Sequence record: PP328843.1
Origin: Escherichia phage 215Ecol030PP
Length of the DNA: 64,000 nucleotides
Direction: 5' to 3' (one strand)
This document shows positions 61,438 through 63,176 of this stretch, in pieces. Within the stretch, counting starts at the first letter, position 1; each line of letters starts with the position of its first letter. Position numbers and translations under genes: made by a program. The notes beneath the pieces are model-generated. The model did no database searches and was not told the origin of the DNA. It saw only the letters and a list, made by a program, of their open reading frames with translations.

Positions 61438-62367
61438 ATGTCAGGATATAATTCTCAGAATCCAAAGGAACTCAAAGATGTCATTCTAAGACGTTTAGGG
61501 GCTCCAATTATCAATGTTGAGTTAACACCCGATCAAATTTATGATTGCATCCAGCGTGCCCTAGAATTATACGGTGAATACCATTTTGATGGACTCAATA
61601 AAGGTTTTCATGTGTTTTACGTAGGGGATGACGAAGAAAAGTACAAAACCGGAGTCTTCGATTTAAGAGGTTCCAACGTATTTGCAGTAACCCGCATTTT
61701 ACGCACAAATATTGGGTCAATAACATCTATGGATGGAAATGCTACATATCCGTGGTTTACTGACTTTCTTTTAGGAATGGCTGGTATTAATGGCGGTATG
61801 GGGACTTCTTGTAATAGATTTTATGGACCAAATGCCTTTGGAGCTGATTTAGGATATTTTACTCAACTTACCAGTTATATGGGAATGATGCAAGATATGC
61901 TCTCTCCTATTCCAGACTTTTGGTTTAATTCAGCAAATGAACAGCTCAAAGTCATGGGAAACTTCCAAAAATATGATTTAATTATCGTAGAAAGCTGGAC
62001 TAAATCATACATTGATACTAATAAAATGGTTGGAAATACAGTAGGATATGGAACAGTCGGTCCACAAGATAGCTGGTCATTATCTGAACGATATAATAAC
62101 CCAGACCACAATTTAGTTGGTCGCGTTATTGGTCAAGATTCGAATGTTAAACAGGGTGCTTATAATAATCGTTGGGTGAAAGACTACGCTACAGCTTTAG
62201 CTAAAGAATTGAATGGTCAAATTTTAGCACGCCACCAAGGTATGATGCTTCCTGGCGGTGTTACGATTGATGGACAACGCTTAATAGAAGAAGCTCGATT
62301 AGAAAAAGAAGCATTACGTGAAGAATTATACTTGCTCGATCCTCCGGTGGGAGTGTTAGTTGGATGA
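61438..62367 (+). CDS. 13: neck protein gp13
   Basis: 309-aa ORF; length equals T4 gp13. Confidence 0.85.
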
Positions 62368-63176
62368 ATTATACTAAAATTTACAACTCTCTTATAGAAA
62401 GATCTCTTAAAAGAGGTCTTAATAAGAAAAAATTAGATTATTACACAGAATCACACCATATTGTCCCAAAATCCATGGGAGGAGATGATTCTAGAGAAAA
62501 CAGGGTTTTACTGACAGCAAGAGAACACTATTTTGCGCATGAGCTTCTTTTTAAAATACACCGAAATTCTGAAATGGCTTATGCCTTAATAAAATTCTCC
62601 AAGGGTACAAAAGAGCAGAGAATTGTAAGTAAAGATTACGGATGGATTAAAGAGGAAACATCTAAAATTAGATCAGAAACCATTAAAAAGTTTTGGGCGA
62701 ATCTATCACCAAATTTAAAACAGGAACGAATTAAAAAAGCCGGAAAAGGCATTAAAAAAACTAAATCTTTATGGACAGATGAAAAGAGAAAAGAAGTTAA
62801 TGCAAATATTCGAAAAGCTTCAGTGAAATATTTGGAATCGTTATCAGAAAACGAAATGTTAGAATATAAAGAAAGATGTTCTAAACAGATGAAAGATTTC
62901 TGGTCTGAGCTTAAAAGTGACCCCCAAAAATACGAAAAGTATTTAAATAAACTATCTAAAGGTCTTGCAAAAGTCGAAAAGAGAAATTGCCCGCATTGCG
63001 GAATTATATGTGATGTAGGAAATTATGGAAAATACCACGGCGATAAATGCAAAGTTATCACGGGTGTATCTCATAGCAGAGAAAAATTAAAATGCCCGCA
63101 CTGTTCTAAAATCATGGATAAGTCTCACGCTAAAAGATACCATTTTGACAATTGCAAATTTAAGAAGGTCGAATAA
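62364..63176 (+). mobile_element. freestanding HNH homing endonuclease gene inserted between genes 13 and 14 (Mob-type N-terminus, C-terminal tandem zinc fingers)
   Basis: 270-aa [16 protein letters not shown]..., HNH core HHIVPKSMGGDDSRENRVLLTAREHYFAH; C-terminal CPHCGIICDVGNYGKYHGDKC and [21 protein letters not shown]; ATG overlaps gp13 stop and its stop abuts the gp14 ATG. Confidence 0.8.

Follow-up and report, generated by a model that had tools for sequence, protein, structure and literature searches.

A putative MobE-like homing endonuclease gene with two predicted CCHC zinc fingers between neck genes 13 and 14 of a T4-type Escherichia phage

The subject of this study is a gene that lies exactly between neck genes 13 and 14 of Escherichia phage 215Ecol030PP, at positions 62364–63176 of the plus strand in a stretch of 64,000 nt from sequence record PP328843.1 (the whole of this stretch is referred to below as the window). 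We think it highly probable that this gene, which encodes a protein of 270 aa, is a free-standing homing endonuclease gene (HEG) of the T4 Mob family, resembling mobE and specifying two predicted C-terminal CCHC zinc fingers, and that it travels as a mobile cassette of ~830 bp. This reading is carried by the sporadic distribution of the insert at a single junction, the sharp limits of the inserted unit, its low divergence relative to the genes on either side and the homology of the protein with T4 MobE. The features of the region are as follows.

61438–62367, plus strand: gene 13 (neck protein), the upstream host gene, predicted to carry the target site at its 3′ end
62347–62366, plus strand: recoded 3′ end of gene 13, left end of the cassette and candidate immunity patch; alleles disjoint between 14 genomes with and 14 without the insert
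62349–62353, plus strand: GGGAG, a Shine–Dalgarno-like sequence created by the recoding, 10 nt 5′ of the nuclease ATG, as read from the sequence
62364–62367, plus strand: ATGA overlap of the nuclease ATG (62364–62366) and the gene 13 TGA (62365–62367), from the raw sequence
62364–63176, plus strand: free-standing gene for a putative Mob-type HNH homing endonuclease of 270 aa; ATG-initiated reading frame, profile matches, homology with MobE and with the T6 protein
62448–62540, plus strand: predicted HNH catalytic core, residues 29–59 (E29, H31, H32, N46, H55, H59), from conservation and an AlphaFold2 model
62640–62972, plus strand: predicted central array of five helices of ~23 aa each, residues 93–203, from the AlphaFold2 model; probably corresponds to the NUMOD3 region of relatives
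62979–63050, plus strand: predicted CCHC zinc finger 1 (C209, C212, H225, C229); ligands invariant in 8 homologues, predicted beta-beta-alpha fold
63084–63155, plus strand: predicted CCHC zinc finger 2 (C244, C247, H260, C264); ligands invariant in 67 homologues
63162–63180, plus strand: 3′ junction, consisting of AAGAAGGT (Shine–Dalgarno-like), CGAA, the nuclease TAA (63174–63176), T (63177) and the gene 14 ATG from 63178
63178–63948, plus strand: gene 14 (neck protein), the downstream host gene

The gene 13–gene 14 junction and the limits of the cassette

The window is Tequatrovirus DNA, its last 24 kb being ~98.4% identical to phage YUEEL01, and the gp13 and gp14 proteins are 98–100% identical to those in T4, T2, T6 and RB3. 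A gap of a single nucleotide (TAA-T-ATG) separates genes 13 and 14 in T4, T2, RB3 and G3F7, and the two genes are also adjacent in eleven more distant T4-like genomes from IMG/VR. A first-pass annotation of the window had described the two genes as neighbours in T4 and the open reading frame (ORF) at 62364–63176 as a Mob-family HNH gene inserted exactly between them, with an ATGA overlap at gene 13 and a stop codon 1 nt before the gene 14 ATG; the raw sequence agrees, carriers always hold the insert at 13/14 and the empty sites are precise. At the 5′ end the ATGA overlap would couple translation of the nuclease to that of gene 13, and GGGAG, which occupies the position of TGGAA in empty sites, may act as a ribosome-binding sequence. 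At the 3′ end the cassette reproduces the TAA-T-ATG of empty sites together with a purine-rich sequence 5′ of gene 14, through which expression of gene 14 would stay intact. Two other classes of element were considered and rejected. An intron- or intein-encoded homing endonuclease does not fit, since genes 13 and 14 are complete, separate ORFs with the nuclease ORF between them and no significant RNA structure was found at the junctions; nor does a terminase-associated HNH protein of the kind found in HK97-like phages, the gene lying two genes 5′ of gp16 and being absent from ~90% of close relatives.

When phage records matching the gene 13–14 region were compared, 46 of 508 (~9%) were found to carry the insert, always at 13/14 and at 96–99.9% identity, so that a further possibility, that the ORF is a conserved resident of this interval, was not borne out. 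Three of the 46 carriers are records of phage T6, whose protein is 100% identical to that of the window and bears the RefSeq label ‘homing endonuclease’ (YP_010067306.1). The gene is therefore not new as an annotation; it is an uncharacterized member of a known family, and no study of it was found in the literature searched. The T6 copy and the ~45 other Tequatrovirus copies share the position and both junctions, and the T6 copy shows no structural difference from that of the window; the flanking gene 13 is only 95% identical to the window’s. What is on record for these copies is a database label. Searching all phages with tblastn revealed no relative between 60% and 95% identity, the next relatives being Mob-like genes of ~30–35% identity at other loci. 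A metagenome scan returned a single close copy, on the already known contig L007, and none of 79 more distant metagenomic Mob relatives adjoins gene 13 or 14.

The limits of the cassette were set by comparing 13 fetched carrier loci, with the window as the 14th, with 14 insert-free Tequatrovirus loci over 1.9 kb on each side. Exactly eight sites carry alleles that are disjoint between the two classes, namely 62347, 62349, 62353, 62355, 62358, 62361, 62364 and 62366, while 62346 is partially associated with the insert. In filled sites gene 13 ends CC(G/A) GTG GGA GTG TTA GTT GGA TGA and in empty sites CCA TTT GGA ATT TTG GTA GGT TAA, a recoding that comprises two conservative amino-acid changes (F>V and I>V), several silent changes and an exchanged stop codon. 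The concentration of differences is marked: between the window and G3F7, nine of the 42 mismatches in gene 13 fall within its last 22 nt (P = 5e-7). The remaining polymorphisms of the flanks, some of them 10–25 nt from the patch, segregate freely in both classes, and the right flanks of filled and empty sites are identical from TAATATGGCT onward. Because the insert-linked sites are confined to 62347–62366 and the right flank is unchanged, the mobile unit is 62347–63176 (~830 bp). The sequence into which it is inserted is highly conserved, an empty-site 39-mer of Tequatrovirus being identical in 339 records, and Moon-like empty sites, like several others of T4-like phages, preserve the nucleotide sequence of the end of gene 13 (GATCCTCCATTTGG...). 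No allele with the patch and without the nuclease was found in IMG/VR, a weak negative, as only four contigs there have a near-identical gp14 (>=99%).

The protein and its likeness to MobE

Assignment of the protein to the Mob family rests on profile and sequence matches. Its Pfam HNH_4 score of 24.4 bits exceeds the cut-off of 22, and residues 1–267 match PHROG 655 (‘homing endonuclease’; E 2.7e-52); it is 33% identical to T4 MobE over residues 1–230 (BLASTP, E 6e-29) and 47% identical to mobD over residues 1–111 (tblastn). Common to the nuclease and MobE are an MNYxKIYN N-terminus, an HH...N...H core and a CPHCG...H...C finger. Across 67 homologues E29, H31, H32, P35, G40, N46, H55, H59 and the four ligands of the last finger are invariant. 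The AlphaFold2 model built on the alignment of these homologues has a mean predicted local distance difference test (pLDDT) score of 93.8 and comprises an HNH beta-beta-alpha unit (strands 29–32 and 47–50, helix 52–66; pLDDT >94), five helices and two beta-beta-alpha fingers. With the HNH part of the model, Foldseek returned weak matches to the HNH domains of Cas8-HNH, McrA and Cas9 (all E > 0.3), and a sequence search against solved structures gave marginal HNH matches only (E >= 0.076). By motif and by predicted fold the protein belongs to the HNH (beta-beta-alpha-Me) superfamily, and its predicted activity is metal-dependent cleavage of DNA. The Mob-type N-terminus and HNH core that had been read from the sequence in the first pass are thus upheld (HH31–32, N46, H55 and H59 are present and HNH_4 is above its cut-off), and the degeneracy of the HNH residues that would have spoken against an active nuclease was not found, the residues being intact and under purifying selection.

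The regions that follow the core would serve to hold and track DNA. The central helices correspond to the NUMOD3 region of relatives, yet NUMOD3 (PF07460) was not among the Pfam matches at E <= 1, though many homologues have it; we therefore do not file the protein as a NUMOD3 member, but judge from the model that its helices are probably a DNA-tracking region working like NUMOD3 repeats. At the C-terminus the pattern C-x2-C-x12-H-x3-C occurs twice, as CPHC-x12-H-x3-C repeats at residues 209–229 and 244–264. The zinc-finger assignment draws on this pattern and a predicted fold, the Foldseek matches to finger arrays being weak and no Pfam zinc-finger family reaching its cut-off. When MobE is aligned with the 13/14 nuclease by BLASTP, its only C-terminal finger lines up with finger 1 of the nuclease. 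A short GC-rich palindrome, CCCGCATTGCGGA, lies at 62990–63002, where the first CPHCG is encoded. It scores as a terminator-like hairpin on the minus strand only, the one hairpin found by the terminator scan, and probably arises incidentally from the codons of the finger.

The window has two other HNH ORFs, both on the minus strand, at 6485–7279 and 11764–12396. Neither has a CxxC motif, and a CxxC scan agrees with the earlier observation that the paired CPHC...H...C repeats are peculiar to the 13/14 gene among the three. The first of these ORFs, of Mob type and 264 aa, is 50% identical to the 13/14 protein over its first 111 residues and continues into two NUMOD1 and an I-HmuI NUMOD-like module; the second, also of Mob type (210 aa), has the HNH domain as its only recognized domain. 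The Mob-type ORFs of the window thus present one catalytic head joined to differing DNA-binding tails.

The likeness to T4 MobE extends from the protein to the organization of the gene. MobE has no promoter of its own and is transcribed along with nrdA; in T2 nrdB it introduces a strand-specific nick close to T2/T4 polymorphisms (Wilson & Edgell 2009, PMC2790892). The two proteins share the N-terminus, the HNH core, a helical or NUMOD3-type middle and the CPHCG...H...C finger; the start of mobE overlaps the stop of nrdA (TAATG), as the start of the 13/14 gene overlaps that of gene 13; each gene lies between two conserved genes (nrdA and nrdB for mobE) and is sporadic among relatives; and no promoter motif of its own was found for the 13/14 gene, MobE being promoterless by experiment. 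The differences are that the 13/14 gene resides in the late neck operon and mobE among the nrd genes, that the 13/14 protein has two predicted CCHC fingers and MobE one, that no Pfam NUMOD3 is found in the middle region of the 13/14 protein, that mobE contains an internal plus-strand intrinsic terminator whereas none was found in the 13/14 gene, and that the insert-linked polymorphisms at 13/14 abut the insertion point whereas those of MobE lie ~120 nt into the downstream gene.

The recoded end of gene 13 and the predicted target

Other lineages have relatives of the nuclease at this junction. Three metagenomic proteins (P0002–P0004), 51–56% identical to that of the window, are each encoded directly 5′ of a gene 14 homologue on contigs L021–L023, and in all three contigs the end of gene 13 is found directly 5′ of the nuclease gene. 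Contig L022 can be compared with Shewanella phage Thanatos-1, which has an empty site and to which its flanks are 98.9% identical (right flank, 99.6%). In L022 the last seven codons of gene 13 are again recoded, the gene ending CCT ATG GGA ATA ATT ATT GGA TGA, as against CCA TTT GGT ATT TTA ATT GGC TAA in Thanatos-1; of nine mismatches in the left flank, eight lie within the final 21 nt of the gene (P = 1.3e-8). In Thanatos-1 (L125) genes 13 and 14 are 8 nt apart (spacer GGAATATT, 869–876), and L022 has the nuclease gene and a single T in place of this spacer; insertion thus remodels the intergenic spacer as well. The Moon-like contig L023 has a right flank ~95% identical to Salmonella phage KM16 and Citrobacter phage Moon, both empty. 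Compared with the Moon-type empty sites L011, L012 and L017, its gene 13 differs by five silent changes within the final 13 nt and by none in the next 25 nt (P = 0.005), and its nuclease gene is preceded by a 9-nt spacer of its own.

Our working model of how the cassette moves is built by analogy with MobE. The nuclease would be read from the late message of gene 13 and translated by means of the ATGA overlap and the GGGAG that the recoding created. Its helical array and two zinc fingers may bind a long asymmetric site, and the HNH centre would then nick or cut the 3′ end of gene 13 or the 13/14 junction itself (approximately CCTCCATTTGGAATTTTGGTAGGTTAA followed by TATGG) in co-infecting phages that lack the HEG. 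Repair by recombination off the HEG-carrying genome would copy in the cassette and, with it, the recoded last codons of gene 13, leaving the carrier site doubly protected, by the interruption that the insert makes and by eight substitutions in its left half, while the 3′ end of the cassette would restore stop-T-ATG and a ribosome-binding sequence and so preserve expression of gene 14. Motif scans, whose power to exclude is limited, for the late promoter TATAAATA, for sigma-70 promoters and for terminators gave nothing specific to the insert, the nearest plus-strand TATAAATA on the 5′ side being at 55030, sigma-70-like matches occurring at chance level and no plus-strand terminator being found in the nuclease gene. 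Some T4 HEGs have a hairpin that sequesters the ribosome-binding site; RNA folding at the two junctions gave z-scores of 0.73 and 0.19 and no sign of such a hairpin.

Two arguments favour a target at the end of gene 13. This is the sole difference between carriers and non-carriers within 1.9 kb on either side, and a site elsewhere, being identical in carriers, would be cleaved in the carrier itself; moreover, three lineages recode at this point and do so in part by silent changes that neither a start codon nor a ribosome-binding site needs. The first-pass annotation had proposed that the enzyme targets the junction of phages lacking the gene. The comparative data (an insert-linked gene 13 end, with recoded ends in two further lineages) fit that proposal, and cleavage is the part of it that we predict from sequence.

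A number of considerations nevertheless weigh against this model. Both the mechanism and the activity are extrapolated from homology with MobE. No gradient of co-conversion, nor any footprint of it, was seen in the 1.9 kb on either side. Linkage between patch and insert is in itself uninformative because there is no homology between them in which a crossover could occur. The patch has another explanation, as two of its changes make the ATG, two or three make GGGAG and the rest may be carry-over from a donor. Contigs L021 and L023 retain CCTCCATTTGG, so that this half of the site cannot be what protects them unless the specificity of their enzymes differs. Finally, MobE nicks ~120 nt into the downstream gene, which makes a distant target conceivable here too. 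The foremost alternative is that the enzyme makes a MobE-like distant nick in gene 14, in gene 13 or elsewhere, and that the patch does nothing but supply a start codon and a ribosome-binding site. In its favour, MobE nicks at nt 122–126 of T2 nrdB, away from its own insertion point, several patch changes are explained by the creation of ATG and GGGAG, and L021 and L023 retain CCTCCATTTGG. Set against it are the complete lack of other insert-linked polymorphism within 1.9 kb on either side, with the self-cleavage that this would entail, and changes that play no part in translation initiation: TTG>TTA and GTA>GTT in the window and the five silent changes of L023, in which the nuclease gene moreover has its own 9-nt spacer. 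We regard a target away from the junction as rather unlikely.

If the junction is the target, the cases from other lineages invite a broader and distinctly speculative proposal, which we consider doubtful: that one nuclease lineage has been faithful to a ~30-bp site at the gene 13 3′ end across at least three or four T4-like lineages (E. coli Tequatrovirus, Shewanella Thanatos-like, Citrobacter/Salmonella Moon-like and that of L021), carrying with it a portable recoded end in which immunity patch, start codon and ribosome-binding site are combined. Were this true, and were the enzyme also to cut an essential late operon in co-infecting empty-site phages and so lower their yield, the cassette would be a weapon of competition across lineages and not a parasite alone.

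Recent spread and place among phage homing endonucleases

The cassette has spread horizontally between phages in recent times. Among eleven intact copies the mean pairwise difference at 4-fold sites is 0.055 for the nuclease gene, compared with 0.167 for gene 13 and 0.115 for gene 14 in the same genomes, and nucleotide diversity (pi) is 0.018, compared with 0.048 and 0.035. A 4-fold divergence 2–3 times below that of the flanks indicates that the element is younger than its surroundings, as horizontal movement into diverged backgrounds predicts. The flanking haplotypes are shuffled with respect to the insert, the window resembling the empty G3F7 and T6 the empty T2. The 46 variable codons comprise 33 that are synonymous only and 13 that change an amino acid; N46, H55, C209, C212, H246 and C247 vary synonymously only, which points to purifying selection on the protein. 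F1 and SHFML-26, two of the 14 copies, have in common a 1-nt deletion that brings a stop at codon 154; these 812-nt copies (2427–3238 in both L029, vB_EcoM_F1, and L026, SHFML-26) are annotated as two small ORFs and represent the expected decay phase of the HEG life cycle. The carrier phage G9062 (L024, 3241–4066) has a gene 14 with a 55-nt insertion relative to the window, annotated as truncated; the extra sequence might stem from sequencing or assembly or else be a true duplication.

These data also bear on whether the gene is still mobile. It might be a vertically inherited relic of an old insertion in one Tequatrovirus sublineage, kept since its removal would disturb expression of genes 13 and 14; the two frameshifted copies, the lack of visible co-conversion tracts in the flanks and the fact that nuclease activity is a prediction would all suit such a history. 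The low synonymous divergence of the HEG relative to its flanks, carrier haplotypes that match different empty phages, and catalytic and zinc codons that change synonymously only are difficult to reconcile with it, and we think a relic very unlikely. Equally improbable, in our estimation, is a domesticated nuclease of benefit to the phage, whether as a weapon against competitors, through cutting of their neck genes, or in DNA processing near the packaging genes after the manner of the HK97-like terminase-associated HNH proteins: purifying selection, predicted expression in a late operon two genes 5′ of the terminase genes and a reported case of an intron endonuclease used in phage competition (PMC11620839) lend it some colour, but T4-type packaging is annotated as using the gp17 nuclease, competitive exclusion would in any event be a by-product of homing that calls for no separate mechanism, and absence from ~90% of close relatives together with frameshifts in 2/14 copies marks the nuclease as dispensable.

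We return to the homing endonuclease reading and to the company that such a gene keeps in T4-type genomes. T4 segC, in the gene 5–6 baseplate cluster, and segD, between genes 23 and 24, are likewise free-standing HEGs among late structural genes, segC being co-oriented with its neighbours; unlike the 13/14 gene they belong to the GIY-YIG family, and segD lies on the opposite strand. In the window phage neither T4 segC nor gene 5.3 is present, and within the region 48085–48924 gene 5.1 (48127–48615) leads directly into gene 5.4 (48622–48912); it is thus an empty site for one T4 HEG while being a carrier of the 13/14 HEG. In the intronless homing of SegF and SegG, carrier and recipient reportedly have different target sequences, and flanking markers are copied along with the gene. 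The logic of target-site polymorphism is the same at 13/14; the nuclease family is another, and no co-conversion gradient is seen. On L021 (Logan contig SRR33991139_568291), beside the 13/14 nuclease, a second Mob-like HNH ORF of 198 aa occupies 1621–2217, between genes 14 and 15. It shares the neck operon and lies at the neighbouring junction, with 30% identity to the 13/14 nuclease in the HNH region and 43% in the last finger, but it differs in its junction, its shorter length and its distant sequence. Klebsiella phages KpV477/KP182 and Serratia phage LC53 likewise have a gene annotated as ‘Mob-like putative homing endonuclease’ in the company of neck, gene 15 and terminase genes, and such genes appear to have landed in the neck operon repeatedly. 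That a mobile nuclease within a late structural operon is unusual, as had been supposed at first, does not hold in the light of segC, segD and the Mob-like genes at 14–15, and HEGs have been described as frequent near structural genes (PMC10448857).

The cassette accounts for a presence/absence polymorphism that breaks the synteny of the neck operon in ~9% of sequenced Tequatrovirus records, and leaves the general understanding of homing endonucleases unchanged. Its particular value is that T6 is a carrier while T2 and T4 are not, that the cassette is delimited to the nucleotide and that a target of ~35 bp can be predicted, so that within the classical trio of T-even phages a second Mob-type HNH enzyme, and the first with two predicted CCHC fingers, becomes directly testable. 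In mixed infections or phage cocktails, the cassette could bias the inheritance of markers near genes 13 and 14.

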